Positions 11,717 through 32,000 of a stretch of 32,000 bases of DNA are shown here, one piece after another (positions within the stretch are counted from its first letter, which is position 1; every line of letters starts with the position of its first letter). The stretch lies in NCBI RefSeq assembly GCF_002075285.3, contig NZ_CP021983.2, positions 690,001-722,000 of the forward strand, read 5' to 3'. A program made the position numbers and the translations under genes. Below the pieces are notes generated by a model that was given only the letters and a program-made list of their open reading frames with translations, made no database searches and was not told the DNA's origin. Source of the stretch: Halomicronema hongdechloris C2206. Lineage in GTDB: Bacteria > Cyanobacteriota > Cyanobacteriia > Phormidesmidales > Phormidesmidaceae.

Positions 11717-11940
11717 ATGACAGGCCGATCGCTACAGCTATCTGAGGCAGGGCAGCAGCAGGCGCGACAGGCACTGCTGGTGAGAAGCCTGACTCAAAAA
11801 GCGTCGCCTATGAGCATGCGATCGCATACTGGCTGACGCGCCATTCTGCCGCTGCCCAGCGCACGGAGTTCTTTGAGCAGCTACAGCAGCCCGACACCCA
11901 GGCTCAGCGCACCCACTGGCTACCGGTGCTGAGCATGTGA
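11717..11940 (+). pseudogene. small ORF split over two frames at an A5 run; its stop overlaps the start of 11937..13430
   Basis: ATG 11717 gives MTGRSLQLSEAGQQQARQALLVRSLTQK... and stops at 11834-11836. The -1 frame from the A-run at 11796-11800 continues SVAYEHAIAYWLTRHSAAAQRTEFFEQLQQPDTQAQRTHWLPVLSM* and ends in a GTGA overlap (11937-11940) with the next gene. Confidence 0.3.
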
Positions 11941-13430
11941 CGGCGAGCAATACCGTGCAGATGGTGGGTGAATTGTTGGCCCGCTGGTGGCGATCGCTCA
12001 GCCATCGCTTACCGGATGCGATCGCAGCGATCGCGGCCCGAACACCGCAACCCCATGGTCGATTGCCTCACCCCTATGACGATCGCAGTCAGCTTTTGGG
12101 GTGGTTGTTACAGCCCTGTTGGCCCCTGATTCAAGCCCAGCCCGAGACAGAAATTTTGACGGCTCTACAACAGCAGGTCTCGCTGCTTGGCCATGGCAGT
12201 TGTAGCCGGTTAATTGAATGCCATCTGGGGGTAGCACCTGCATTACAACATGACCTCCTGCGGCGATTGTTGACGGAGCCTGTCCCTCGTTATGAGGATA
12301 TCAAAACGGCTCTGGCACAGTGGATCGCCTCGCTATTGCCAGCCCATTTAGAGGTCGCCGATTTCCCGCTGGGCGATCGCTGGGAAGCGTTTTTATATGA
12401 GTCTTGGCCACCCGGCTGGCAGATTGTCCTGACGCTAGCGGTAGCGCATTGGGCCGGACGGGACCAAGGCTTATTCAACGCCATTTTGGCGGATGGCTTG
12501 TTTGGTCCCACTCACCATCTGGGGGCTAATTTGATGGTGCTGCGGGAAAGTGTAATGCTGGGAGCGGCTGAGTGGATCGCGCCTTATCTGGCAAGCTTGC
12601 CGCCTGATTGCGCCCAGACGATGAATTTTGCCTTTCTTGCCAAGGGGTTGCCTGCAGGGGCGGTTAAGCACATGTCACCGGCTGGGCAGGAGGCGATCGC
12701 GCAATGGCTGAGTCCCCATGTGCCCGATCAGGCCGTAACCCTATGGACGTTGATTAATCACCTGGCCGATGCTGCCCCCACAGCTCGGGAATTGCTCATC
12801 GCGCTAGTTCCCCAACTGCCAAAAAAGACGCGTCGACAGGTAGAGGTGCAACTACTACGGTTTCAGCCGATTGCGGCTCATCCACCTCTCGAAACCTTAT
12901 CAAAATCAGATCAACGCTTTTTGCTGGCCATGTATCAGGAGTGGGCGCAGCAAGATGAAGCAGCCTTGGAGCGGCTATTGGCAACGGCACGGGGCAAGCA
13001 AAATGATGCGGCAGTGAGCGCGAGCCGCGTTTTGGCTGACCTGGACAGCGGCCCTGTATCACTAGAAGACTGGGTGCCTCTGGTGCGATCGCGCTTTGTG
13101 GGGGTGAGGGTTAATGCCCTAACCGCCATGGCAACCCAGTTGGCCAAGCAGTCAGTTGCCGACGCTACTCTCAAGGACATTGCGATTGCTCTGGCCACAG
13201 AAGACAATCCCACCGTGGGGCGAAAATTTTGTGATCTGGTTGCTGAGTGGGTTCGTCGCCGACACCGAGTCCCGCCTGTAGTATCGAGGTGCTATCTCCT
13301 GCCAGCCAATAAGCGACTGGTCGGGGACGCGAGAGTTAGTCGCGAACGGCGTCCCTATGCGGAGTTATATCCCTTTTCGATGCGGGATGCGATGCCGCGC
13401 TTTGCGGTGCCGTTGACGCTTCAGAGTTAG
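11937..13430 (+). CDS. hypothetical protein, 497 aa, no family recognised
   Basis: Long ORF with a GTG start and native GC content. It is largely helical and Leu/Ala-rich, with no motif I can name. It is the last gene before the repeat-rich array trailer. Confidence 0.6.
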   Translation: MTASNTVQMVGELLARWWRSLSHRLPDAIAAIAARTPQPHGRLPHPYDDRSQLLGWLLQPCWPLIQAQPETEILTALQQQVSLLGHGSCSRLIECHLGVAPALQHDLLRRLLTEPVPRYEDIKTALAQWIASLLPAHLEVADFPLGDRWEAFLYESWPPGWQIVLTLAVAHWAGRDQGLFNAILADGLFGPTHHLGANLMVLRESVMLGAAEWIAPYLASLPPDCAQTMNFAFLAKGLPAGAVKHMSPAGQEAIAQWLSPHVPDQAVTLWTLINHLADAAPTARELLIALVPQLPKKTRRQVEVQLLRFQPIAAHPPLETLSKSDQRFLLAMYQEWAQQDEAALERLLATARGKQNDAAVSASRVLADLDSGPVSLEDWVPLVRSRFVGVRVNALTAMATQLAKQSVADATLKDIAIALATEDNPTVGRKFCDLVAEWVRRRHRVPPVVSRCYLLPANKRLVGDARVSRERRPYAELYPFSMRDAMPRFAVPLTLQS

Positions 13431-13553
13431 GAACCGGTTGTGGTGCTGAAAGGGTTATTGGGCAGGGTGATAAAACGTTCTGCTCTGGCCGTTGTGTTGG
13501 ATTATGAGCAAAGCCCTATGCCATACCGGTGATGAGGAATGGTGTGCTGCACA

Positions 13554-13725
13554 GATGGACTATTGCCTGTTTAAACAAGATTGGTCTTGTTTATAGATGG
13601 ACCATTGCCTGTCTAAGAAGGACTGACTTCATGCCAAGACGAACCATTCCCTGTTTAAACAACATTGGCCTTGTTTAAAGACGGACTGCTCTCTGTTTAA
13701 ATAGGACTGCCCTAGTTTCAAGAGG
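13554..13725. repeat. tandem repeat block with 42-nt period made of two ~21-nt half-units (core TGTTTAAA)
   Basis: Units start at 13554, 13596, 13638 and 13680, e.g. GATGGACTATTGCCTGTTTAAA-CAAGATTGGTCTTGTTTATA and GACGAACCATTCCCTGTTTAAA-CAACATTGGCCTTGTTTAAA. Seven of eight half-units carry (C/T)TGTTTA(A/T)A or TAGTTTCAA. Confidence 0.65.
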
Positions 13726-13750
13726 CTCTAGTTCCGGTTCAAGCCGAACT

Positions 13751-13949: not shown

Positions 13950-14214
13950 GGAAAACGGAAGGACGAGAGCGGAGAACGGAGAGTTTTAGAGGGAAGAAGC
14001 TCATGAGTCACAAATCATTCTGCATCGAACTTTTCCGTCCTCCATCCTCCGTTTTCCTGTTTTCAAACCGTTTCCATTAATTCAACTTCCGAAGAAGCAG
14101 TTGAAAGGACGGAAGAACGAGAGCGGAGAGCGGAGGATCATTCTCAATGGCTTTTCGCGGTTGTGAGTAATTCGGCATCAAGTCTTCCGTCCTCCGTCCT
14201 CCGGTTTTCAAACC
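13950..14214. repeat. two tandem copies of a ~110-nt imperfect long hairpin unit, each abutting a CRISPR repeat
   Basis: Copy 1 (13950-14069) has the purine arm GGAAAACGGAAGGACGAGAGCGGAGAACGGAGAG and the pyrimidine arm CTTTTCCGTCCTCCATCCTCCGTTTTCC, then TGTTTTCAAACC, then a degenerate repeat at 14070. Copy 2 (14104-14214) has GAAAGGACGGAAGAACGAGAGCGGAGAGCGGAGG and CTTCCGTCCTCCGTCCTCCGG, then TTTTCAAACC, then a repeat at 14215. Confidence 0.7.
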
Positions 14215-15038
14215 GTTTCCATTAATTCAACTTCCGAAGAAGTTTTGGGAGGAGCATCCCGCTCCCCAGCCGGATCCAGAGCCGTTTCCATTAATTCAAC
14301 TTCCGAAGAAGTTTTGGGTGAAGCGATTTGCTGAAACCATAATGCAAATCCTATCGTTTCCATTAATTCAACTTCCGAAGAAGTTTTGGGTCCAACTTGC
14401 AGCAATTGATCGCTTGACTCTGTTTGTTTCCATTAATTCAACTTCCGAAGAAGTTTTGGGTGGAGTTAACGCCCAAATCTCGTGTCCGAATATTGTTTCC
14501 ATTAATTCAACTTCCGAAGAAGTTTTGGGTCGAGGCCAGCCCGACCACCACGACTACCACCTCCATCGGGTTTCCATTAATTCAACTTCCGAAGAAGTTT
14601 TGGGTGGGTGATTCGAATGTCCATGAAAACGCAAACCAACGTTTCCATTAATTCAACTTCCGAAGAAGTTTTGGGCTTTGGGTGAAGGTGATTTCCAAAT
14701 TGCCCTTGAGTTTCCATTAATTCGACTTCCGAAGAAGTTTTGGGGCGGATGCAACGGTGTTTAGATTTGTTAACAACTGTTCCGTTTCCATTAATTCAAC
14801 TTCCGAAGAAGTTTTGGGAGGCTCTGCTGAAGTGCAAGTCCGGGGCGACCAAAACGTTTCCATTAATTCAACTTCCGAAGAAGTTTTGGGTTGGGTCGCC
14901 GACACCTGCGACGAGAACGGCGAGAACATGGGGTTTCCATTAATTCAACTTCCGAAGAAGTTTTGGGAGCGCGATCAGTTCCTCGCGGAGGTTGCTAGCG
15001 ATAGTTTCCATTAATTCAACTTCCGAAGAAGTTTTGGG
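14215..15038 (-). CRISPR. leader-distal block, repeat variant 1 (35 nt; plus strand GTTTCCATTAATTCAACTTCCGAAGAAGTTTTGGG), 12 repeats
   Basis: Repeat starts: 14215, 14284, 14356, 14426, 14495, 14570, 14641, 14710 (hybrid, with G at position 15), 14784, 14856, 14933, 15004. Confidence 0.95.
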
Positions 15039-15073
15039 GGCCCAACAGCAGCAACAAGCCGCAGAAGCCAGCA

Positions 15074-17055
15074 GTTTCCATTAATTCGACTTCCGAAGAA
15101 GTTGGCGACCCGCTACAGCTCCAGGTGCTCGGCTCTCCTAGATTCTCTGGTTTCCATTAATTCGACTTCCGAAGAAGTTGGCGACTGTATCTGTAGCCTT
15201 GTTTTCTAGCCTGGGGAGAGGTTTCCATTAATTCGACTTCCGAAGAAGTTGGCGACTTAAAGCTTACGAGAAAGGGCGAAGAGTGTTCTCTAGATGTTTC
15301 CATTAATTCGACTTCCGAAGAAGTTGGCGACAGTTTCTGATACACTCGCAGGGCAATAGCCATCTCCGTTTGTTTCCATTAATTCGACTTCCGAAGAAGT
15401 TGGCGACCTAGGGATTTTCGCTGCTTTTTCGCTGCCTTCTGAGTTTCCATTAATTCGACTTCCGAAGAAGTTGGCGACGAAATACACCATCTGCCAGTAC
15501 GCCCCGGGATACGTTGAGTTTCCATTAATTCGACTTCCGAAGAAGTTGGCGACTAAATATCGGGGGCTGCCCGTTGTTCCTCCTCAAGTTTCCATTAATT
15601 CGACTTCCGAAGAAGTTGGCGACCCGAGTCATTCGCAGAGTATTTAAGGGTTGAGCTCTGCGGAGGTTTCCATTAATTCGACTTCCGAAGAAGTTGGCGA
15701 CGGCGATCGAGGCGATCGAGGCGGGAGATGCCAATGAGGGTTTCCATTAATTCGACTTCCGAAGAAGTTGGCGACGGAGTTGAAAAATGCAAGAGTATTC
15801 AGTTTGGGCGAGACGGTTTCCATTAATTCGACTTCCGAAGAAGTTGGCGACAAGGATCAATGGGTGACAGTCCGCACTGCAACCTTTGTTTCCATTAATT
15901 CGACTTCCGAAGAAGTTGGCGACTAAACCTATCCTCGTGTTTGTAATACAAGTTGTATTACAAGGAGTTTCCATTAATTCGACTTCCGAAGAAGTTGGCG
16001 ACAAAAGGAGCATCGCCGTTTATTTGTTGGCGCTTATCTACAATGTTTCCATTAATTCGACTTCCGAAGAAGTTGGCGACCCTTAAAGAATCGATAAGGG
16101 TGAAGGGTGATTACAAGTTTCCATTAATTCGACTTCCGAAGAAGTTGGCGACCTTTAACAATGTCCCATTCAAGATTAAGGACGGGTTCGAAGAGTTTCC
16201 ATTAATTCGACTTCCGAAGAAGTTGGCGACCCAACGACGGGACAAAACAAGACTCCCCAACTCCCGCTGCTGAGGTTTCCATTAATTCGACTTCCGAAGA
16301 AGTTGGCGACTCGTAAATCTGTTGCAATTCAAGGCCCGTCGGTCGCGTTTCCATTAATTCGACTTCCGAAGAAGTTGGCGACCTCCAGACCCATAGGCTG
16401 AGGCTGAATTAACTGCTGTTTGCCTGCGTTTCCATTAATTCGACTTCCGAAGAAGTTGGCGACTCAGACAGGCGAGACCACAATTGACAAGTACGCAGTT
16501 TCCATTAATTCGACTTCCGAAGAAGTTGGCGACCTAAGGCACTCCTTAGTATTTCAGCTGGGGATTTAGTTTCCATTAATTCGACTTCCGAAGAAGTTGG
16601 CGACCTAAAAATATCCATATTGGACAAGCAGTACTCGGGTTTCCATTAATTCGACTTCCGAAGAAGTTGGCGACACTTGCTGTGCAGGTTGAATCATCCC
16701 CTCAGGCTATTTGAGTTTCCATTAATTCGACTTCCGAAGAAGTTGGCGACTTAATTGACTCTGGTCCCTCCGTCCATGTCTCTTTCCCAGTTTCCATTAA
16801 TTCGACTTCCGAAGAAGTTGGCGACTTGGCCGCGTGGATGAACCAATCGGGGCGTGAAATAATTGTCTGTTTCCATTAATTCGACTTCCGAAGAAGTTGG
16901 CGACTCATTGATAACGAAGTACGTGAAATTAAAACAGTAAACCCAGGTTTCCATTAATTCGACTTCCGAAGAAGTTGGCGACCTCAATGATGTCGGACAC
17001 TCTGGCAGCATGGCTTTGGGTTTCCATTAATTCGACTTCCGAAGAAGTTGGCGAC
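15074..17055 (-). CRISPR. leader-proximal block, repeat variant 2 (36 nt; plus strand GTTTCCATTAATTCGACTTCCGAAGAAGTTGGCGAC), 27 identical repeats
   Basis: Repeat starts: 15074, 15150, 15221, 15296, 15372, 15443, 15518, 15588, 15666, 15740, 15816, 15888, 15967, 16045, 16117, 16195, 16275, 16347, 16428, 16498, 16569, 16639, 16715, 16790, 16869, 16947, 17020. Confidence 0.95.
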
Positions 17056-17317
17056 CCCCTGGCTCTAGGAGCCCCGGGTTGTAAGCATTCTAGCGTGCAA
17101 TTTCGAGGGATAGCTCAGCCGCGGCCAGATCATCATCAAATCGCGCCTCTAAAACCGCTGAAACCCTTGCCCTACAAGCAGTCGAGGGATAGAACGAGAG
17201 AATGGGCCTTGCAGCCATTTCCGCTATCCCTCGCGGCGACACTGGCACACCATCAGATCACAGAGCAGCCAATGCTACTCCCTATAATGGGCCATATCGA
17301 CGCCCGAGGAGACCCCA
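17056..17317. promoter_or_regulatory. putative CRISPR leader (minus) and divergent promoter region of 17318..18100 (plus)
   Basis: This is a 262-nt intergenic region next to the newest-looking repeat. TATAAT lies at 17283-17288 and GAGGAG is 8 nt before the GTG at 17318. The 11-mer TCGAGGGATAG occurs at 17103-17113 and 17182-17192, and its complement CTATCCCTCG at 17224-17233. I could not pick a convincing minus-strand -10 box by eye. Confidence 0.45.
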
Positions 17318-18100
17318 GTGGATTGGATCAGCGGCATCGCGCAAACTCCGGCACCCACCGCCCAAGAGCTGGAACTACTGCGGCAGCAGATCGAGTTTCT
17401 CAAAGAGGCTAACGCCGAGCTAGAAGAGACCTTTGCCCGCTATGTCGACATGGTGCAATTGACCCTGAAAACGGCTGGCGGCGTTGTGGGGGTGGTGGCT
17501 GTTTTGGGAGCCGCCGTCTCCATCAAAAGCTTGCAAGACTTTCGCGCCACCCTCAAGAACGTCAATACCCGCGTGCGCGAGGAAGTCGAGCAGGTGATCG
17601 CCATCGCCCTGCGGCAAGAACGGCAGCGATTGCGGCGTCTAGAGAGCATCCTAGCCCGAGAAGACATTCCCGAACGCCTCTCCCTCACCTATTTAGTGCC
17701 CAGCACCAGACCCCAGCGGCAACTGCCCAGCCTCACCCGACTGTTAGACATTCTTGCGGGCCGGGGCTTTCAGCCAAAGTTGAGCTTTCAGCCTAGCTTC
17801 AGCGACCCCGCCGCCGCCCAGCAACAGCCTGATCTCACCACCGATATTGTGGTCTTAGATCTCTACCACGGCGGCTTCGCCCTCGATACCGAACGAGCCA
17901 ACCCCACCATCCAGGCGGTGGCGGCCAAGTTGCCCTCCCAGCAAGCGGCCCTGGTGGTGTACGGCAACGCCCGCTTTTACCAGGCCGTCACCGACCTGAC
18001 CGAGCAGGGCGAGTACTGCGGTGCCTCGAATAACCCCCTGTCGTTAGTGGCGCGGGTGCTGGAGGCGGCCTATGTCATGGATGCCGTCAGGGCTGGCTAA
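17318..18100 (+). CDS. membrane-anchored protein of unrecognised family; high-GC paralogue of 23250..24083
   Basis: 260 aa: an N-terminal coiled-coil-like segment, one hydrophobic helix (TAGGVVGVVAVLGAAVSI), a charged helix, then an alternating beta/alpha C-terminal domain. Blocks shared with 23250..24083 are LAxE...L..L...RGF; (V/L)V(L/I)D(L/F)xH(G/S)G; (A/I)LV(V/I)Y; Yx(G/T)(A/S)xN(N/T)P..L...V..AAYVxD. Confidence 0.7.
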   Translation: MDWISGIAQTPAPTAQELELLRQQIEFLKEANAELEETFARYVDMVQLTLKTAGGVVGVVAVLGAAVSIKSLQDFRATLKNVNTRVREEVEQVIAIALRQERQRLRRLESILAREDIPERLSLTYLVPSTRPQRQLPSLTRLLDILAGRGFQPKLSFQPSFSDPAAAQQQPDLTTDIVVLDLYHGGFALDTERANPTIQAVAAKLPSQQAALVVYGNARFYQAVTDLTEQGEYCGASNNPLSLVARVLEAAYVMDAVRAG

Positions 18101-19580: not shown

Positions 19581-19654
19581 GCTGGCAGGCGATGCGATCG
19601 CAGACCTCTACGAACATCTTAGCCAGGTGTCTGGGGGGTTAGAGATGCGATCGC
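19581..19654. repeat. HIP1-capped palindromic intergenic repeat, copy A
   Basis: GCTGGCAGGCGATGCGATCGCAGACCTCTACGAACATCTTAGCCAGGTGTCTGGGGGGTTAGAGATGCGATCGC. The ends GCGATCGCAGACCTCTA and TAGAGATGCGATCGC are inverted. Confidence 0.7.
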
Positions 19655-19802: not shown

Positions 19803-20270
19803 ATGACTCAGCCATACAAAATTTACTTAGATGTCTGTTGCCTCAACCGCCCCTTTGACGGTTGGCAGCAAGATCGAGTTCGTTTTGAAGGGGAAGCCGT
19901 ACTGACAATTTTGCAACGAGTCCGGGCAGGAGAGTGGCAACTAATCAGTAGTGAAGCGGTTGAAGCTGAGCTAGAAAGGCTCCCTAACCCTGAAAAGCGG
20001 GAGAGTATTTTGCAACTACTCGACCTGGCAAGCATGACCGTAACGCTTGATGCCCAAATTGACCAGCGATCTCAAGCTCTAGAAAATTTGGGGTTTGGCC
20101 TTTATGATTCATTCCATATTGCCTGTGCAGAAACCACTGGCGTAGATATCCTGCTCACTACAGACGATCGACTACTCAAACGAGCTGCACGCTATAAAGA
20201 GGACATCTGGGTTCAACTCATGAACCCAGTGCCCTGGCTGATGGATGTTTTATCCATTCCGGAGGAATAA
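19803..20270 (+). CDS. PIN-domain protein (toxin-like)
   Basis: 155 aa. YLDVCCLNRPFD at the N-terminus, YDSFHIACAE and ILLTTDDRLLK later. This is a PIN-like arrangement of acidic residues. Confidence 0.6.
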   Translation: MTQPYKIYLDVCCLNRPFDGWQQDRVRFEGEAVLTILQRVRAGEWQLISSEAVEAELERLPNPEKRESILQLLDLASMTVTLDAQIDQRSQALENLGFGLYDSFHIACAETTGVDILLTTDDRLLKRAARYKEDIWVQLMNPVPWLMDVLSIPEE

Positions 20271-20274
20271 CATT

Positions 20275-20499
20275 ATGACACCCATTGAACTCAGACAACG
20301 AGGCTATCAGGCATTAGTGGATGCCCTAGGGGTAGTTGATGCCATTCGTTTTTTGCAGCAAGCAGGCTGGGGAATCGGTAACTACACCACGGAACGGCAT
20401 CAGTGGTTAACTCCGGTCACCCGACAGGAGTTTTGGCAAGATGTGCAGCGAATTCGGGATCAAAAATCGCACCCTCTATCTTCTGATTCAGAAACCTGA
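20275..20499 (+). CDS. small partner protein of the PIN gene (antitoxin-like, family unknown)
   Basis: The ATG at 20275 is preceded by GGAGGA and lies 5 nt after the PIN stop. MTPIELRQRGYQALVDALGVVDAIRFLQQ..., 74 aa. Confidence 0.5.
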   Translation: MTPIELRQRGYQALVDALGVVDAIRFLQQAGWGIGNYTTERHQWLTPVTRQEFWQDVQRIRDQKSHPLSSDSET

Positions 20500-20634: not shown

Positions 20635-20710
20635 CTGGCCCGTGAGGGCGATCGCAGACCTCTATGAAAATCTTGGGCAGTTGTCTTAGGGGTGGTTAGA
20701 GATGCGATCC
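20635..20710. repeat. HIP1-capped palindromic intergenic repeat, copy B
   Basis: CTGGCCCGTGAGGGCGATCGCAGACCTCTATGAAAATCTTGGGCAGTTGTCTTAGGGGTGGTTAGAGATGCGATCC. Confidence 0.7.
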
Positions 20711-20912
20711 AGGGTGTGGTCAGTCTAGAAAACTCTCAGGTTAACTAAACAGTTATTAGGCCTGATGAAGGAAATGCTGTATGCTTCCAAGTGCCAGCGT
20801 TAGGGATATCTTGCCGGATGCTTCAGTGTTCTCTGCCGGAAACGCGGGACGGACATGATTCAGATGCAGAGATGGAGTTGTTAAAATCTAGGTTGAATGC
20901 TCGGGAAGTTTT

Positions 20913-21407: not shown

Positions 21408-21641
21408 ATGGACACTGTCAAACAGCGATTGATTCAAGAACTCGACAAAACGCCCACGCCCCTGCTTCAGGAAATTTTCGATTTCGTTCTGTTTCTCAAG
21501 CAGCGATACTCCCAAAATCAGCCGCATTTCTCAGCTGGGTGGCAACCTAACTTTTTTGAAGAAGTCATTGGTAGTTGGGAAGGCGAAAAACTCGTCCGGG
21601 AGGCTCAGCCAGACTATGAGCAGCGAGAGGAGCTTCTGTGA
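21408..21641 (+). CDS. antitoxin of the adjacent VapC (DUF2281-like N-terminus)
   Basis: MDTVKQRLIQELDKTPTPLLQEIFDFVLFLKQRY... It has a 4-nt overlap (GTGA) with the vapC start at 21638. Confidence 0.65.
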   Translation: MDTVKQRLIQELDKTPTPLLQEIFDFVLFLKQRYSQNQPHFSAGWQPNFFEEVIGSWEGEKLVREAQPDYEQREELL

Positions 21642-22048
21642 CTGCCTATCTGCTTGATACTAACGTTTGTATCAAACTCCTAAACGGAGATAATCCGCGG
21701 GTTATTCAACGGCTAGCAGCCCAGAAACCAGAAGAGATTTATCTGTGTACAATTACACAACTAGAGCTGTTCTATGGTGCATATCGCGGTACTAAGACCG
21801 ATAAAAATCTGCCCAAGTTAGCACGCTTCTTCTCTCAATTTACTATCCTGAGCTTCGAACCGTTAGCGGCTGAAATTGCTGGAAAACTCAGAGCGAGGCT
21901 CCATCAGCTCGGAACCCCTATTGGTGGCTATGATCTTCAAATTGCCGCGATCGCCTTGGCCTATCAACTCACCCTCGTAACCCATAATACCCGTGAGTTT
22001 GGCCGAGTGGAGGGATTGCTGTATGAAGACTGGGAAGCTCAGCCATAA
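21638..22048 (+). CDS. vapC: VapC-family PIN-domain ribonuclease toxin
   Basis: MTAYLLDTNVCIKLLNG..., ITQLELFYGA, GGYDLQIAAIAL, LVTHNTREFGRVEGLLYEDW. This is a full-length canonical VapC motif set. Confidence 0.85.
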   Translation: MTAYLLDTNVCIKLLNGDNPRVIQRLAAQKPEEIYLCTITQLELFYGAYRGTKTDKNLPKLARFFSQFTILSFEPLAAEIAGKLRARLHQLGTPIGGYDLQIAAIALAYQLTLVTHNTREFGRVEGLLYEDWEAQP

Positions 22049-22107
22049 CTATAATGTTCGATAGCGTTGTTTTTTTCTGTGTAATGATTAGAAATTCCCC
22101 TATGAGT

Positions 22108-22176
22108 ACGATCGCTGGCCTCTACGAAAATCTTGGGCAGGTGTCTGGGGGGATTAGAGATGCGATCGCTGGCTGG
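22108..22176. repeat. HIP1-capped palindromic intergenic repeat, copy C
   Basis: ACGATCGCTGGCCTCTACGAAAATCTTGGGCAGGTGTCTGGGGGGATTAGAGATGCGATCGCTGGCTGGC. Confidence 0.7.
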
Positions 22177-22205: not shown

Positions 22206-22571
22206 CTACAAGGTTAATGGTAAATATTCAATTCGGTCTTGATATTCATGGTCATTGGATGCGCCTGCAATTATCAGCAACTCTTCAATGATTTCCCCAA
22301 TATTGCGCCCTAAGTCCATGACTAGAATGCCAGGGATATGACGATCTTGAGCCAGGTGATCCGCCAAGTGCTTGGGCATCGATTTGCGATTATTGGTTAC
22401 CAGGATGAAGTTATGAACTTCGCACCAGATCAGGATGTCTGGATCTAAAGTCCCTTTGGCAGGTGCATCGGGATCACCAATAATTCTGACGATCAGTTCC
22501 GGCTCCCGGCGCACCAGTTGGGTTCGGTATAGGGGCGGAATATGCTCATCTAGCAAATACTGGAGGCTCAC
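22206..22571 (-). CDS. DUF5615-like (PIN-like) toxin-type protein
   Basis: MSLQYLLDEHIPPLY..., DPDILIWCEVHNFILVTNNRK. It sits directly downstream of a DUF433-like gene, which is the known pairing. Confidence 0.6.
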   Translation of the reverse strand: MSLQYLLDEHIPPLYRTQLVRREPELIVRIIGDPDAPAKGTLDPDILIWCEVHNFILVTNNRKSMPKHLADHLAQDRHIPGILVMDLGRNIGEIIEELLIIAGASNDHEYQDRIEYLPLTL

Positions 22572-22585
22572 GACGATGGAATTGT

Positions 22586-22918
22586 CTATGTTGTAGTCTG
22601 AGTAATAATGTTCTCAGGTTTAAGCTGCCGAAGTCGGAGTCGGGCGGGGGAGGGGTGTTGCCGTTGCTGTTCTCGCTGTTGACGAGCAAATTCCAACCAG
22701 TCGGCGATGTAGGCGCTGACCTCTTCTTTGTTGTGCAGGTAGTAGAGGATGGTGGCATAGACTTGCTCTAGGGTGACAGTATGAAATTGCTGAGCAATTT
22801 CTTCGGGGGTTTTGCCGCGATAAATATATTCGTACAGGATACTCTCGATGCCGATGCGGGTGCCGCTGATGCGGATATCGTCGGGGGCGAGGAAGGTGAA
22901 GTAGTCTTGGAGGTTCAT
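22586..22918 (-). CDS. DUF433-like antitoxin-type protein
   Basis: APDDIRISGTRIGIESILYEYIYRGKTPEEIAQQFHTVTLEQVYATILYY matches the DUF433 core. Confidence 0.65.
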   Translation of the reverse strand: MNLQDYFTFLAPDDIRISGTRIGIESILYEYIYRGKTPEEIAQQFHTVTLEQVYATILYYLHNKEEVSAYIADWLEFARQQREQQRQHPSPARLRLRQLKPENIITQTTT

Positions 22919-22990: not shown

Positions 22991-23070
22991 GCGATCGCTG
23001 GCTGGCGATGCGATCGCAGACTTCTATGAAAATATTAAGCAGTTGTCGGAGCGACTGCTAAGGGTTGGAT
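22991..23070. repeat. intergenic repeat, variant copy D1
   Basis: GCGATCGCTGGCTGGCGATGCGATCGCAGACTTCTATGAAAATATTAAGCAGTTGTCGGAGCGACTGCTAAGGGTTGGAT. It shares the left half with copies A-C. The right half forms AGCAGTTGTCG-GAG-CGACTGCT. Confidence 0.65.
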
Positions 23071-23086
23071 GAGAGCGCATCATCGA

Positions 23087-23183
23087 CTGGCCCGTGAGGG
23101 CGATCGCTGCCCTCTATGAAAATATTGAGCAGTTGTCGGAGCGACTGCTAAGGGTTGGATCGTTGAGTGGTGATGCGATCGCC
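23087..23183. repeat. intergenic repeat, variant copy D2 (tandem to D1)
   Basis: CTGGCCCGTGAGGGCGATCGCTGCCCTCTATGAAAATATTGAGCAGTTGTCGGAGCGACTGCTAAGGGTTGGATCGTTGAGTGGTGATGCGATCGCC. Its left flank CTGGCCCGTGAGGGCGATCGC is identical to copy B. Confidence 0.65.
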
Positions 23184-23249: not shown

Positions 23250-24083
23250 TCAAGATCTGTAAATGCTATCAGCTACATAAGCCGCGTCCACGACTGCCCC
23301 CATCAAGGCTACAGGAGTGTTAGCAGATGTGTAGTACTTAATTTCTGAAAAATCAGTTGTTAAAGTGTCTATAGCTGCTATCCTACCTTCACCAGGACGA
23401 ATATAAATAACCAATATTGGATTTCCTTTTCTAGAACTGAGGATTCGACTAATTGTATGCTTGAAGATATTTTCTCGCTCTTGAAAGATTTTCTGTCTAT
23501 CATCGTTTTGAGTCGAATAGGGATTTGGTAAAATCCCTGAATGCACGAAATCAATCACCAAAACTTTTGCGAAAGGAGTCCTTTCCTCTCGTAAGTCATG
23601 CCACTTATTCACCCGGAAGCCTCGATCTTCTAATAATGAATGTTCTAGTAGAGAAATATCCCTGTCGGAAGTCAAATGATAGTCAATAACAGTTTCACGT
23701 ACTACTCTTTCAGCCAGAAGACTACGATCTAGATCTTCAATTTCTTCTTTGACTAGAGGTTGAAGGTGAGTAGCTAGCTCTTGACGCGCTATTTCTCTTG
23801 CAACCTTCTTAGCGTCATCAAGGCTATTTTTGAAGAACCAAGTGAGTAACGCTCCGATGATGCCAAGGAAACCAAGGAAGGCACTATTCATCTTAAGAAT
23901 GAACTCTAGCTGCCGTGCTAACACCTCTGACTCAACTTGTCCGACTTGTGGAGATGTCGGCGGTAACTCTATAAGTTTATAGATAGCAATAACCGCAGCA
24001 GCTATACAAAGTATGAAAGTTAGTGGTCTAAGCCACTCCTGAACAATAAATTCTTGAATATTACTACGATTTCTTTTGCGCAT
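23250..24083 (-). CDS. membrane protein of unrecognised family, last gene of the cmr operon; low-GC paralogue of 17318..18100
   Basis: The likely start is the ATG at 24083 (the track ORF starts at a TTG at 24125, overlapping the upstream stop). 277 aa. Hydrophobic helices are LTFILCIAAAVIAIYKLI and AFLGFLGIIGALLTWFF. A charged helix follows, then a beta/alpha domain (VIDYHLTSDRD, LLEDRGFRV, KVLVIDFVHSG, ILVIYIRPG, KYYTSANTPVALMGAVVDAAYVADS). Confidence 0.7.
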   Translation of the reverse strand: MRKRNRSNIQEFIVQEWLRPLTFILCIAAAVIAIYKLIELPPTSPQVGQVESEVLARQLEFILKMNSAFLGFLGIIGALLTWFFKNSLDDAKKVAREIARQELATHLQPLVKEEIEDLDRSLLAERVVRETVIDYHLTSDRDISLLEHSLLEDRGFRVNKWHDLREERTPFAKVLVIDFVHSGILPNPYSTQNDDRQKIFQERENIFKHTISRILSSRKGNPILVIYIRPGEGRIAAIDTLTTDFSEIKYYTSANTPVALMGAVVDAAYVADSIYRS

Positions 24084-24121: not shown

Positions 24122-26203
24122 TCAAACGGAGATGGCGGTAAAGTTAACTGCATTCTGCAAGTCTTCTACAAATTTTTGACGTCCTGGCAAAGGATTTTCA
24201 GAGACATGATCCGTTCCGAAGACTGTAACCACTTGGTAAGACTGATTTGGGATATTGAGATTGTTAGAGGAAATCCAGACAAAGGACGGGGTGCCTAGCT
24301 CTCCACCTATGAATTCATTTCCAATCTTCTGCAGATTCTTGCCTTTATAGTCTGGATTATATAAAAAATCTAATGCTTTTCCACGGATTTCAGACGACTG
24401 ACCTTCTTGTGGCCAGTCATCTACCTGATTAGGATGTTTCATGTTAGGAGAAGGTATGAGGAAAATACCTGAGTTGACGTTCAAAACATCTTGATTACGC
24501 TTCCCCTTTCCTGGCCCTCCCGGATTACCTGGAGATAACGCACCTCTGGGATCTGCTTTCCTGACATCAGTAAAGCTTGTCTCTAAAGAAGTTAGAAAAT
24601 CTTGCCAAATTCCCTTATTACAATCCAGACGATCCTTTTTTTCGGGCTCCCAGTAGCATCCACGCAGTCCACTATGCTTTTTATCCTTGTTCCAATGAAG
24701 CGGGCGTCGGGCTCCACGTCCAACGCCACCTAAATGAATCGCTAGCTTGTATACATTCTGAATTAGTGCTAAATGACTTGGCTCTTGTGCTTCTAAAATG
24801 ACAGTTCCAGAGATTTTGTGTGGAATATTAACATCATTGAGAGAACTCTGATCTTCTTCAAATTCAACTTTAATGTCAATACTGCCGTGAACGGCTTTGG
24901 GTTCTAAAGCGCCGAAAAGTTTAGCTTCTAATTCTTTACAATGCTCTGGAGTGTAGAGACCCAGTGCAACAGCTCGAAACCAATACCGCAACATGCCACG
25001 AACTGCTGAAGGGCGGAACTCTCGTTGCCCTGAATCGGCACCGTAGATTCCTTGCGACCACAGCTCAAAGTGGTGTTTACTCTTATAAGGTGAAGATTCC
25101 TCGGGCCTAGTAAGGTCATTCACTTGGTGAGCTTGACCGTAGCCAGCACTTACACGAGATCCTAAGCCACTAGTCAGCATCGCTTGCTCTAGCCAATCCA
25201 TGACAACTTGAACATCTTCTGCCTTTCCTCGACTCGTATGAGTCAAGCCAATATTGAAGTTTAAATTCTGAAGAGACAGGATCTGATGGGGAGATGGACC
25301 ATATTTAACCTGATCACCTTGCCATATCCACTGAGGAGTTGCCACATCTACGCTAAGACTCGGAGCGGTAGGAAAAGCATCTAGAATTTCAACAGCAGCC
25401 ATAGACGCTTTTTCTCCTTGTAAGAATCCCAAGAGGTGATTGATTTCGTCACTACTTTTGTTAGCATCTCTGGCCCAGGATCTTAATATTCCTTTGATGC
25501 TACTCGCTGGTATGTAAGGAATTCCATAGATAGGATGCATCGCAGGGAGTAACCGCTCACGAAATCCCTGTAATCCACCCACACGAACCCGCCAGGGATA
25601 CTGTACAGAAACAATTGCTTTTTTGCTGTTTTTAGTGGCCAGGTCAGTAATTTCACAAGCTAGCAATTCAACTCTTTGATTCAGCCTTTCATAGAGATCA
25701 GTCCAATCTTTATCCGCACCTGCTGCATTAGCTAGGAGAACGCGAACGCGCTTGTCATCAATATCGAGAATCTCCTTTTTGATCGCAGAACAGTTGCAGG
25801 CATTATTCCTTTTTTCTTTGCTGATTCGCTTTAAGATTTTCTCGAAATCTGTTTCCTTGCGTGAATTACCTCTATTTAACTTCTCTGACTCTAAGAGTGA
25901 TTTTATTTCTCTGAGACGAGAACTTAGTCCTTGAATTGACAAAAGCTCAGATAATACTTCTTGCTTGCTGAAAAAATCTTCGTAATCATATTTTACTCCA
26001 GAAATACTTAATTCAAGATCATCGAGTTTAAGAACTTGTAGAGGTATTTTACTTCTATTCCTTGGAGATAAAATCTTGGAATTCCTTGACTTTTTAGATG
26101 GTTTGTTTGACCTGTTTTTGTTTGGTTTGTTTTCTGAAGGCAGTTGATTCTTCAAGAAAGCCAGATCTTGAAGAGTTGTCTTGTTCTTGTTATTGGATGC
26201 CAT
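24122..26203 (-). CDS. cmr6: type III-B RAMP fusion protein: N-terminal K/N/S-rich extension + Cmr6-like RAMP + Cmr1-like RAMP
   Basis: The ATG at 26203 lies 2 nt after the cmr5 stop. Cmr6-like motifs: YPWRVRVGG...HPIYGIPYIPASSIKGILRS ... GLGSRVSAGYGQ. Cmr1-like motifs: FRPSAVRGMLRYWFRAV ... KLFG ... HLGGVGRGARR. The first ~150 aa are low-complexity and basic (NKNKTT...NKPNKNRSNKPSKKSRNSK). Confidence 0.75.
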   Translation of the reverse strand: MASNNKNKTTLQDLAFLKNQLPSENKPNKNRSNKPSKKSRNSKILSPRNRSKIPLQVLKLDDLELSISGVKYDYEDFFSKQEVLSELLSIQGLSSRLREIKSLLESEKLNRGNSRKETDFEKILKRISKEKRNNACNCSAIKKEILDIDDKRVRVLLANAAGADKDWTDLYERLNQRVELLACEITDLATKNSKKAIVSVQYPWRVRVGGLQGFRERLLPAMHPIYGIPYIPASSIKGILRSWARDANKSSDEINHLLGFLQGEKASMAAVEILDAFPTAPSLSVDVATPQWIWQGDQVKYGPSPHQILSLQNLNFNIGLTHTSRGKAEDVQVVMDWLEQAMLTSGLGSRVSAGYGQAHQVNDLTRPEESSPYKSKHHFELWSQGIYGADSGQREFRPSAVRGMLRYWFRAVALGLYTPEHCKELEAKLFGALEPKAVHGSIDIKVEFEEDQSSLNDVNIPHKISGTVILEAQEPSHLALIQNVYKLAIHLGGVGRGARRPLHWNKDKKHSGLRGCYWEPEKKDRLDCNKGIWQDFLTSLETSFTDVRKADPRGALSPGNPGGPGKGKRNQDVLNVNSGIFLIPSPNMKHPNQVDDWPQEGQSSEIRGKALDFLYNPDYKGKNLQKIGNEFIGGELGTPSFVWISSNNLNIPNQSYQVVTVFGTDHVSENPLPGRQKFVEDLQNAVNFTAISV

Positions 26204-26205
26204 AG

Positions 26206-26709
26206 TTATTCTTTTGCCTCCCCAAGAATAGCGGTCGCCCAAAACCCCCATTCTTTAGCTAACTGCATAGCTAATCTGTTCAAAGCTGTATACTTTCGCA
26301 ATTCCATATTGACGAGTGTTTTTTCATCGCTTGCGTCATACCCATGACTCCAAATCACGAACTCTTCCTTGCTGAGATACTTTAACCGCTCTAGGAATAG
26401 GCCATAAACCTTGCCCTTATATTTTGTGTCTGAGGCCATGCCTATAGAAAACTTTTTGGCATCGCCTGTTAACCTGTGCAGGCCCCAAGCTGCAATATAG
26501 GTAGACAGGCCTTGTACTAAGCTACTTGATTTCTCGCAATATGATTTTGTTCTTTCATTAACTTCTTTTTCTGAAGGACGAGCATTAGGAAGTCTCCTTT
26601 CTTCTTTTTCTTTCTTGATGACTTCTGCAGCTAAATCGTGCAAATGACCTCGTAGATCGTGTAGTGCTTTATAGGCCTGTTGGCTAAATTCTCGACTATC
26701 GATATTCAT
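26206..26709 (-). CDS. cmr5: Cmr5-like small subunit (Cas11 family)
   Basis: 167-aa helical protein between cmr4 and cmr6, with an ATGA overlap with the cmr4 stop (26706-26709). The call rests mainly on position and size, and the sequence motifs are weak. Confidence 0.6.
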   Translation of the reverse strand: MNIDSREFSQQAYKALHDLRGHLHDLAAEVIKKEKEERRLPNARPSEKEVNERTKSYCEKSSSLVQGLSTYIAAWGLHRLTGDAKKFSIGMASDTKYKGKVYGLFLERLKYLSKEEFVIWSHGYDASDEKTLVNMELRKYTALNRLAMQLAKEWGFWATAILGEAKE

Positions 26710-27686
26710 GATTGAGCCTCCTGGGTCTTAGACTTATCTGTTTTGAGGCTGCTCCAGCCACGACCGAGTCCTTCTAGTCCGCCAAACTGCAATCGTTTTC
26801 CTAGCATATCTTGCAGGGAAGCTTTAACAGCTTCGTGGTTATCCACTCTGGTTTTATGTTCTGCCTTAGCCTTATCAATTTCTTCAGGCTTCATTCCTGG
26901 TTTTGGCTTGAAAGGGCGAATAGGCTTGGTCGCCCAAGGGAAAAATAAAACAGTTTCTGGAGGAATTGCTTCTTCCGAACGGAATGAGCCTCCTTTAACT
27001 GTCTTTTCATTTTCGTTTAAGGCAACTCTGACCTCTCGTTGCAGTCCTGTTTCCACTAACGAAACACAGTCCTCATTACTTAAAACCACTAGCCGCTGTT
27101 CTATCTCTCCAATGATTCCATTACCTGCTGTAATTGCTTTGATCTTCTTCGAAAGGGATTGGGTATCGACCGATGAGTCAATGTCATCAGGCTTTAATAG
27201 AGCTGTTTGTAGGTAAAGGGGTTCTGCCTTAAACGTTGCGATCGCTGATTTTGCCTTATTTCCTTCTAAGCCCTTAAGTTTCTTGTGACAATCCTCGGCA
27301 AACGTTTTAACGTTATCACCATCATTTCCCAGCCATCGACTCCAGCGCTCAAGCCAGAGCGGACAGGTAATCCAAACCAGATGATGACTCAGTGATGCGA
27401 TTGGGAAAAACAGAAGCGTGGCATCGGCAAACCAGACTTCTCCTTCTGTTGGTTGACCCCCACCTTCAATCTTTTGGCCAAAAAACGTTTGAACTGCATC
27501 TTTTAGTCCATCATTCTCGTACTTCTGCTCCATTGCTGCCCGAATGCGCCCTCGCACAGAAGAGGCAGGCATGTAAGGAAACTCGATATGCACTTCTCGG
27601 GCAATGCCCATCAGATTTCCCTCATCAGCACTCCCCCCTGTATGCAGCGGCGTGAATAAATACAAATAGGTCAAATAGTTATCCAT
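26706..27686 (-). CDS. cmr4: Cmr4 (Cas7-family backbone RAMP) of a type III-B complex
   Basis: MDNYLTYLYLFTPLHTGGSADEGNLMGIAREVHIEFPYMPASSVRGRIRAA aligns residue for residue with the canonical Cmr4 N-terminus. The C-terminal glycine loop is LQFGGLEGLGRGW. Confidence 0.85.
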   Translation of the reverse strand: MDNYLTYLYLFTPLHTGGSADEGNLMGIAREVHIEFPYMPASSVRGRIRAAMEQKYENDGLKDAVQTFFGQKIEGGGQPTEGEVWFADATLLFFPIASLSHHLVWITCPLWLERWSRWLGNDGDNVKTFAEDCHKKLKGLEGNKAKSAIATFKAEPLYLQTALLKPDDIDSSVDTQSLSKKIKAITAGNGIIGEIEQRLVVLSNEDCVSLVETGLQREVRVALNENEKTVKGGSFRSEEAIPPETVLFFPWATKPIRPFKPKPGMKPEEIDKAKAEHKTRVDNHEAVKASLQDMLGKRLQFGGLEGLGRGWSSLKTDKSKTQEAQS

Positions 27687-27690
27687 TTCC

Positions 27691-27750
27691 TTAGCAGTCT
27701 CCCCATAACAACATTCCGTAGTTCAGCTTTTTAAGGATGACGTTTCTCAT
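27691..27750 (-). pseudogene. 19-codon scar: first ~8 codons of a RelE/ParE-like toxin fused to a duplicated cmr3 3' end
   Basis: MRNVILKK|[11 protein letters not shown]. Its ATG overlaps the antitoxin stop (ATGA, 27747-27750). Nucleotides 27699-27727 are identical to the true cmr3 3' end at 28035-28063. Confidence 0.55.
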
Positions 27751-27965
27751 AGACGCTCGATCTCTGTAATGGCCTGTTCCAGAGGGATGGCTTCATCGTC
27801 ATCAGCCTTAGCCATATCAAAGGCATAGAGTGACTCAAGCTCTTCCAACTCCTCTAACAATTTTTGATACACCCCAATATCAAGCACGACGCCAATACGT
27901 TTCCCTTGGTTATCGACGAGGTAGCGTTCTCGCAAACTATCCATGTCTCCAGTCATCCTTAACAA
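27747..27965 (-). CDS. orphan type II antitoxin-like protein (Phd/YefM-RelB-like) embedded between cmr3 and cmr4
   Basis: ...LRERYLVDNQGKRIGVVLDIGVYQKLLEELEELESLYAFDMAKADDDEAIPLEQAITEIERL is a very common cyanobacterial antitoxin pattern. The start is ambiguous (TTG 27965, ATG 27956 or ATG 27944). No intact toxin lies downstream. Confidence 0.65.
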   Translation of the reverse strand: MLRMTGDMDSLRERYLVDNQGKRIGVVLDIGVYQKLLEELEELESLYAFDMAKADDDEAIPLEQAITEIERL

Positions 27966-28029
27966 ACTTGTCTGATGCTAGCCGGGTGGCACAAAGCCGC
28001 GCCCTGCAATAATCACGCATGGTGTTTCC

Positions 28030-32000
<3,971 letters not shown>

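Follow-up and report, generated by a model that had tools for sequence, protein, structure and literature searches.

Membrane proteins of type III CRISPR loci

Several membrane proteins have been associated with type III CRISPR systems. In Cam1, Csx23, and Cap1, the binding of a nucleotide messenger leads to membrane depolarisation or to the opening of a pore. A further candidate, Cam2, has been described from 26 type III loci as a protein with N-terminal membrane helices, of variable length, and a domain resembling the receiver (REC) domain of response regulators (Hoikkala, Graham & White, NAR 2024, PMC11229360). Cam2 has been predicted to be a membrane effector gated by cyclic triadenylate (cA3) and has been modelled as a trimer; the Cas10 proteins of its loci carry a cyclase and no HD domain, known effectors are lacking from these loci, and no histidine kinase is found nearby (PMC11229360). 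In addition, Shmakov et al. (2018) reported uncharacterised membrane proteins with a stable linkage to type III loci, for which they suggested a role in membrane anchoring. C3a55, which is cluster 55 in Shah et al. (2018), has Nos7107_2836 as its representative, is linked to subtypes B and D, and carries the label “ABC permease”. Here, we describe a gene at positions 23250–24083 (minus strand) of a 32,000-nucleotide stretch of the cyanobacterium Halomicronema hongdechloris C2206 (contig NZ_CP021983.2, 690,001 to 722,000; hereafter the window). The gene encodes a 277-residue membrane protein with a receiver-like domain and is the last gene of a type III-B operon. A preliminary description of the locus had presented the protein as unrecognised and as a candidate new effector or sensor.

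Judged by its profile matches, the 277-residue protein is a member of an already catalogued type III accessory family, Mem_02/C3a55, and not of a new family. We propose that it may act as a messenger-gated membrane effector of the Cam2 type, a reading to which we give about an even chance of being right. This reading is based on the family membership, the linkage to type III loci, the linked Cas10 proteins that keep the cyclase motif GGDD and have no HD motif, the receiver-like fold, the pattern of conservation, and the replacement of the receiver-like half by an effector gene in a sister locus.

The gene and its family

The gene starts with ATG at 24083, ends with a stop codon at 23250–23252, and encodes 277 residues. 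A TTG start at 24125, which gives a 291-residue version, has been rejected because the homologues, including the nearest one (92% identical and also 277 residues long), begin at the ATG. In total, 124 close homologues with E-values from 1e-165 to 1e-32 have been collected. These homologues, together with a mean pLDDT score (predicted local distance difference test) of 88 for the AlphaFold 2 (AF2) model, make the open reading frame (ORF) far more than a chance occurrence. All the homologues with a named source are cyanobacterial, all are annotated as “hypothetical”, and they lack Pfam domains. When 1.84 billion representatives were searched with a profile, only 177 relatives, of 56–312 residues, were returned, without domain fusions.

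The PADLOC profile Mem_02, described there as “membrane protein (2TM) with a globular domain”, matches the protein with E=3.9e-60 (residues 41–273 against profile positions 21–232 of 235), and the C3a55 profile matches it with E=1.5e-31, both over almost all of its length. Mem_02 presumably originates in the 2018 survey of Shmakov, which is our assumption only. The word “unrecognised” therefore has to be given up, as does “candidate new”, since both the architecture and the proposed mechanism have been published as Cam2 (PMC11229360). A homologue from Anabaena cylindrica, WP_015217685.1, matches C3a55 with 2.3e-92. We reject the ABC permease label of C3a55, as the proteins have only one or two membrane helices and show no Pfam or NCBIfam transporter match. 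Searches of Pfam, NCBIfam, and PHROGs gave no meaningful match for this protein or for the second family member of the window described below.

The type III-B operon

The gene lies 38 nucleotides (nt) after the stop codon of the gene for a Cmr6/Cmr1 fusion, on the same strand, as the ORF coordinates confirm. The fusion gene (24122–26251, minus strand; 709 residues) is directly upstream in the operon and is identified by Pfam RAMPs and by the Cmr6 and Cmr1 profiles of PADLOC and NCBIfam. It is preceded on the same strand by cmr5, the small subunit (26206–26709; PADLOC Cmr5, E=1.7e-13), cmr4 (26706–27686; PADLOC Cmr4, E=7.8e-41), cmr3 (28030–29229; Pfam Cas_Cmr3, E=1.8e-44), and cas10/cmr2 (29226–31961; PADLOC Cas10b, 1032 bits), which is the presumed source of the messenger. 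In this Cas10, the cyclase motif GGDD occupies residues 638–641 (nt 30039–30050), so the earlier statement that Cas10 retains it holds, and a motif search of the first 200 residues found no HD motif. The window ORFs that were scanned include no CARF or SAVED protein, in agreement with the earlier remark that no known messenger sensor is visible, and no histidine kinase. No cas1, cas2, or cas6 has been found in the window.

The preliminary description had considered the membrane protein gene almost certainly co-transcribed with the effector genes, in part on account of a shared low GC content. A signal scan detected no terminator-like site. It gave two promoter-like matches compared with 3.3 expected in shuffled sequence, that is, no excess, and the sole minus-strand match falls within cmr6/cmr1, outside the 38-nt gap. 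Co-transcription with the cmr operon is therefore no more than plausible. The GC content of the gene (0.40) is indeed shared with cmr4, cmr5, and cmr6/1 (0.38–0.46) but not with cmr3 and cas10 (0.53–0.56). The III-B operon is thus compositionally mosaic.

The change in composition is located at the cmr3/cmr4 junction, where the GC content drops from ~0.55 to ~0.42, and this shift suggests that the junction is an insertion or recombination point. The intervening region (27687–28029) holds a 72-residue ORF (27747–27965, minus strand) that by eye resembles an antitoxin of the RelB/Phd type. A 41-nt direct repeat (27699–27739 and 28035–28075), which duplicates the 3' end of cmr3, flanks this ORF. 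Small ORFs are also found at the equivalent position in two related loci, L016 (73 residues) and L046 (73 residues, with a weak RelB-like Pfam match); loci from other genomes are cited here by such numbers.

Protein architecture and conservation

The AF2 model was built from 80 homologues. Together with hydropathy, it bears out the anatomy given in the preliminary description, namely a basic N-terminus, two hydrophobic helices, a charged linker, and a beta/alpha domain of ~150 residues. The hydropathy profile has two hydrophobic segments, with centres close to residues 29 and 72. Membrane helix 1 (~residues 18–38; 23970–24032, minus strand) follows a basic N-terminus (MRKRNR) with a predicted cytoplasmic location and has a hydropathy peak at residues 25–34 in a modelled helix of residues 6–38. 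This first membrane helix is missing from the relatives of ~257 residues. After a short acidic loop, the model shows a single continuous helix from residue 50 to residue 130 (pLDDT >90) that comprises an amphipathic segment, membrane helix 2, and a charged stalk. Membrane helix 2 spans ~residues 64–85 (MNSAFLGFLGIIGALLTWFF; 23829–23894, minus strand), with a hydropathy peak at residues 70–76. The stalk (residues 86–130; 23694–23828, minus strand) links it to the soluble domain (residues 131–277, 147 residues; 23253–23693, minus strand). Because of the charge distribution and the positive-inside rule, the stalk and the soluble domain are predicted to lie in the cytoplasm.

The best conserved region of the family is membrane helix 2 with the preceding amphipathic segment (residues 50–63), and the invariant or near-invariant residues around this helix are Q58, F61, N66, G71, G77, W82, and F84. 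For a plain anchor, this degree of conservation appears higher than necessary. The conserved positions of the soluble domain are Y135, R154-G155-F156, D178, Y227, N255, and A268-Y269-V270. D178 is at the end of strand 3, Y227 is at the end of strand 4, and N255 follows strand 5 in the model. With the exception of the RGF turn and the last helix, the conserved residues thus appear to be placed at the C-terminal ends of strands 1, 3, 4, and 5. It is at such strand ends that ligands are bound in receiver and flavodoxin folds.

Fold of the soluble domain

A Foldseek search of the PDB with the model of the 277-residue protein returned solely receiver/flavodoxin-type matches, namely AmiR, the N-terminal domain of CpaE, BrpR, and PhyR, the best with E=1.8e-3. 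The independently built model of the second family member of the window has a C-terminal domain with pLDDT >90 and the canonical (beta-alpha)5 order. Its matches are mostly receiver domains (CpaE, ComE, DgcR, PorX, XynC, PhoB, DctD, VicR, PmrA, and KdpE), with a best E-value of 3.9e-4, a probability of ~1.0, and template modelling scores of 0.55–0.64 when normalised by the target. On these models, the C-terminal domain is best described as a degenerate receiver, or pseudo-receiver. The earlier guess of a flavodoxin, receiver, or TIR-like fold was therefore right as to the receiver/flavodoxin type and wrong as to TIR.

The top 50 Foldseek matches of each model include no CARF, SAVED, TIR, Csx23, Cam1, or Cap1 structure. 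Neither CARF nor SAVED profiles match the 277-residue protein in Pfam, PADLOC, or NCBIfam, and TIR profiles do not match it in Pfam or PADLOC. We reject a CARF or SAVED identity and a TIR fold on these grounds; the preliminary description had likewise seen no resemblance to CARF or SAVED. Only one of the four conserved active-site positions of receivers is kept (D178), the others being D-Y, Y227, and N255, as read from the secondary structure of the model without superposition. Canonical phosphorylation is unlikely because these three positions are replaced and there is no kinase partner, and we reject it. Pfam Response_reg does not match the domain either.

Distribution and genomic neighbourhoods

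The family has been found at 40 loci among the GTDB species representatives, all of them cyanobacterial. The preliminary description had proposed to look for enrichment near cas genes in cyanobacteria, and the linkage is clear: 11 of the 13 loci that are fully flanked (10 kb) carry cas genes or arrays (III-B, III-D, or adaptation modules), the exceptions being L002 and L027. In six other complete cyanobacterial III-B loci (L001 and L012–L016), the family gene lies 12–239 nt downstream of cmr6/1 on the same strand and is, as in the window, the terminal same-strand gene of the cmr operon. The view of the gene as a type III accessory gene that closes a III-B operon is thus well founded. It also directly follows cmr6/1 on the same strand in two contig fragments (L025 and L028). 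On plasmid pANACY.01 of Anabaena cylindrica PCC 7122, the gene for WP_015217685.1 and the cmr operon converge, with 44 nt between this gene and cmr6/1. At eight loci (L008, L019–L022, L031, L034, and L039), the family gene adjoins a type III-D cassette (Cas10, Csx10, Csm2, Csm3, Csx19, and Csx21), and other members adjoin Cas6 or CRISPR arrays.

All nine linked Cas10 proteins that were compared, six from III-B and three from III-D loci, keep GGDD, and none of the nine has an N-terminal HD motif. Across the loci, neither a histidine kinase nor any other partner is conserved. Since the family occurs with both III-B and III-D complexes and also at a distance from effector complexes, a diffusible signal fits better than a fixed protein contact.

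Replacement of the gene in a sister locus

The closest genome relative of the window locus is L016, with a Cas10 that is 72% identical and a neighbouring PIN gene that is 95% identical. In L016 (8292–9956), the membrane protein gene is reduced to a remnant of residues 1–121 with an in-frame stop, and the receiver-like half has been deleted. A 407-residue TIR-SAVED gene starts ~90 nt past the end of the remnant homology. The same slot thus holds either the family gene or a genuine messenger-activated effector, and of the contextual arguments for an effector role, this is the strongest.

The SAVED domain of the L016 protein is nearest to the SAVED3 (nuclease-fused) class of PADLOC. Cap4-type SAVED domains sense cyclic trinucleotides. 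By this analogy, cA3 is weakly favoured as the messenger of the window system.

Degraded copies of the family gene are present in L021, L025, L026, L027, L033, and L035. Such copies would fit a gene that is costly to its host; alternatively, they may reflect assembly errors in metagenome bins or a general decay of CRISPR loci.

A second family member next to the CRISPR array

The window contains a divergent paralog that the preliminary description does not mention (17318–18100, plus strand). It encodes 260 residues with one membrane helix and a receiver-like domain, and it lies directly downstream of a CRISPR array. The paralog matches Mem_02 with E=1.8e-22 and C3a55 with E=5.4e-19 in PADLOC, and it is 27% identical to the 277-residue protein across the last 100 residues. 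An acidic coiled-coil segment precedes its lone membrane helix. The paralog subfamily has 26 members and is CRISPR-linked in four of the five contigs checked, the fifth member being located amid housekeeping genes. In the four linked contigs, it adjoins Cas4-Cas1/Cas2, RT-Cas1, a STAND-like gene of ~1220 residues, arrays of the same repeat family, and cmr operons. Both paralogs are present on one contig of Thainema. In none of the 40 genome loci was the second paralog detected less than 10 kb from the first.

The array (14068–17082) comprises ~40 repeats of GTTTCCATTAATTCRACTTCCGAAGAAGT..., identified by a repeat search. The repeat family, which in other cyanobacteria goes along with these III-B loci, is also present in L012–L016, L041, and L044–L046. 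The repeat at 14068, the first of the array, is degenerate. Two variants of the repeat occur, with the 3' end ...GAAGTTTTGGG up to ~15041 and the 3' end ...GAAGTTGGCGAC from 15072 on, as if two arrays had been joined. The presumed leader, just upstream of the array, contains a tandem run of four 42-nt units and two 27-nt repeats (13535–13744 and 13955–14135). Further upstream, a truncated STAND-like copy with a frame change (11812–13430, plus strand) corresponds to residues ~493–1078 of 1222 of the ~1220-residue gene. In L041, L045, and L046, the full STAND-like gene is located between RT-Cas1 and the unit of array and paralog.

Proposed mechanism and alternative explanations

In the proposed mechanism, foreign RNA would be recognised by the Cmr complex, and the HD-less, GGDD-bearing Cas10 would make a nucleotide messenger, most plausibly a cyclic oligoadenylate, with cA3 weakly favoured. 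The messenger would bind the degenerate receiver pocket at the C-terminal strand ends (Y135, D178, Y227, and N255), probably in an oligomer. The rigid stalk helix would relay the resulting change to the membrane helix, which is glycine-rich and highly conserved; the membrane would then be permeabilised or depolarised, and the infected cell would stop growing. The paralog beside the array could be a further effector of the same kind. We infer the ligand binding, the oligomerisation, the transfer of a signal through the stalk, the membrane damage, and the identity of the messenger.

Several observations weigh against this mechanism. The E-values of the receiver-fold matches are modest (3.9e-4 to 1e-2), and a profile search against all PDB sequences found nothing. 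An hhalign comparison of the family profile with CheY gave a probability of 0.8%, which is not significant, and aligned only the turn between helix 1 and strand 2 (“RGF” with “LGF”). To our knowledge, receiver domains are not known as sensors of nucleotide messengers. Some members are found amid housekeeping genes (L002 and L042/L043). At L003, L009, and L023, the family gene comes directly after a gene for an HTH-STAND NTPase of 471–483 residues on the same strand, and the STAND-paired members are the one-helix members, which have RT-Cas1 next to them where the flank is present; a position after STAND genes or beside adaptation genes could point to a different partner. At the level of description, the 277-residue protein shares every feature of Cam2. 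A literature search found no experimental work on Cam2, on the family, or on receiver-domain membrane effectors.

The protein could instead be a membrane tether or scaffold that anchors the Cmr complex or the adaptation machinery, with the receiver-like domain serving as a docking module, as the pseudo-receivers of CpaE and AmiR do, and without any sensing of a messenger. The best structural matches, CpaE and AmiR, are indeed pseudo-receivers that act through protein contacts, the paralog subfamily adjoins Cas4-Cas1/Cas2, RT-Cas1, and arrays and not effector genes, and membrane anchoring is what Shmakov et al. (2018) proposed for the uncharacterised type III-linked membrane proteins. We nevertheless consider a tether unlikely: the family is found with both III-B and III-D complexes, whose subunits differ, its gene is sometimes far from any cas gene, the conservation of the membrane helix goes beyond the requirements of an anchor, and the L016 slot holds a soluble messenger-activated effector and no other anchor. 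The pairing with STAND genes raises another alternative, in which the protein relays an envelope or membrane signal, or serves as the executioner of the adjacent STAND/HTH NTPase, and shares defence islands with type III systems without being driven by Cas10. Besides the three direct pairs, a Uma2 gene is located between the STAND NTPase and the family gene in L019, and a partial STAND copy is found at a contig end in L007. The ~1220-residue STAND-like gene before the array and paralog, with its truncated copy in the window, and a conserved extracytoplasmic segment before membrane helix 2 point in the same direction. The III-B-linked members, including the window gene, sit in the cmr operon without an adjoining STAND gene, however, the Cas10 cyclase motifs are kept in every linked locus, and no partner of any kind is conserved across the loci, which together make this alternative quite improbable. 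The recurrent pairing of an HTH-STAND NTPase with a one-helix member is an observation of its own, and it is not covered in published descriptions.

Two further alternatives concern the role of the soluble domain and the label of the family. The receiver-like domain might bind or degrade the product of Cas10, in the manner of a membrane-bound ring nuclease or a sponge, and so act as a brake without killing the cell. Four III-D loci (L004, L008, L020, and L034) that carry the genuine effector TIR-SAVED alongside the family gene would leave room for such regulation, yet no other effector that could be regulated has been found in the window or in most III-B loci, the Pfam and NCBIfam scans detected no nuclease or phosphodiesterase motif, and it is not evident why a sink should need a strongly conserved membrane helix; we therefore regard this role as very improbable. 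An ordinary membrane or transport protein unrelated to defence would agree with the “ABC permease” label, which is used in Shah et al. (2018) and in PADLOC, and with the few members amid housekeeping genes, but it is hardly credible for a protein with one or two membrane helices, no transporter match, and a strong CRISPR linkage.

The messenger-gated membrane effector can be extended to a broader proposal, which we put forward more tentatively. The degenerate receiver may represent a third class of sensors of Cas10 nucleotides, beside CARF and SAVED, that gates a pore of one or two helices, and the two paralogs may respond to different messengers or act at different stages, giving a two-channel membrane-signalling defence.

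Significance of the locus

If the receiver-like domain binds the product of Cas10, the most common signalling domain of bacteria would join CARF and SAVED as a sensor of nucleotide messengers. This question has been called a priority by the authors of the Cam2 prediction (PMC11229360). The window locus offers a clean test case, with a cyclase-positive, HD-less Cas10, a candidate whose gene closes the operon, a second paralog, no other known effector found in the 32 kb, and a sister locus in which TIR-SAVED replaces the receiver-like half. It is thus a good experimental entry point for receiver-like sensing of CRISPR messengers. As for annotation, we suggest that “ABC permease” and “hypothetical protein” be replaced with [quoted passage not shown].

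Other features of the window

Three toxin-antitoxin-like pairs are located between the two paralogs (19803–20499, 21408–22048, and 22206–22918). One is a PIN gene with a small ORF downstream of it, another a small ORF that precedes a PIN gene, and the remaining one a DUF433 gene with a DUF5615 gene. Nearly identical copies of the DUF433/DUF5615 pair and of the PIN gene are present in Nodosilinea sp. P-1105 (L040) and in L016. A dispersed repeat of 50–61 nt, rich in GCGATCGC sites, is present in five copies (19589–19654, 20643–20714, 22103–22172, 23005–23070, and 23095–23160), which sit between the toxin-antitoxin-like genes and just downstream of the membrane protein gene. This repeat probably belongs to the small intergenic repeat elements of cyanobacteria. 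At 5774–8347 (plus strand), ~6 kb from the array, there is a gene for an 857-residue TPR-CHAT protease-like protein in which no SAVED or CARF domain has been found. It is possible that this protein is a partner effector. TPR-CHAT proteins are common in cyanobacteria, and a different CHAT protein adjoins the paralog in L045.

Comparison with known systems

Within Mem_02/C3a55, the window protein belongs to a Leptolyngbya/Nodosilinea-type branch, which is closer to Mem_02 than to the Nostocales branch of C3a55. Compared with the receiver domains of CheY, PhoB, the CpaE N-terminal domain, and AmiR, its soluble domain arranges its elements in the same (beta-alpha)5 order, ends strand 3 with an Asp (D178), and has an “RGF” turn where CheY has “LGF”. 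On the other hand, the acidic pair D-D that follows strand 1 in receivers is D-Y, the Thr/Ser after strand 4 is Tyr, and the Lys after strand 5 is Asn. Helix 2 is absent from the 277-residue protein, which also has no significant sequence similarity to receiver domains and no kinase partner.

The likeness to Cam2 extends over the whole architecture. Both have N-terminal membrane helices, two in the 277-residue protein and one in the relatives of ~257 residues and in the paralog, and a C-terminal domain that structurally resembles the REC domain of response regulators. The type III loci of both encode a cyclase-positive Cas10, and neither is associated with a histidine kinase. A difference is in the company they keep, as Cam2 has been reported beside NucC and SAVED-CHAT whereas the family of the window protein co-occurs with TIR-SAVED. 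Cam1, Csx23, and Cap1, which are gated by cyclic tetra-adenylate (cA4), share with the window protein the combination of N-terminal membrane helices and a cytoplasmic domain, ligand-binding in those proteins, as well as the location in type III loci. They differ from it in the sensor, which is CARF in Cam1, CARF-like with DUF4579 in Cap1, and a unique fold in Csx23, compared with the receiver-like domain of the protein described here.

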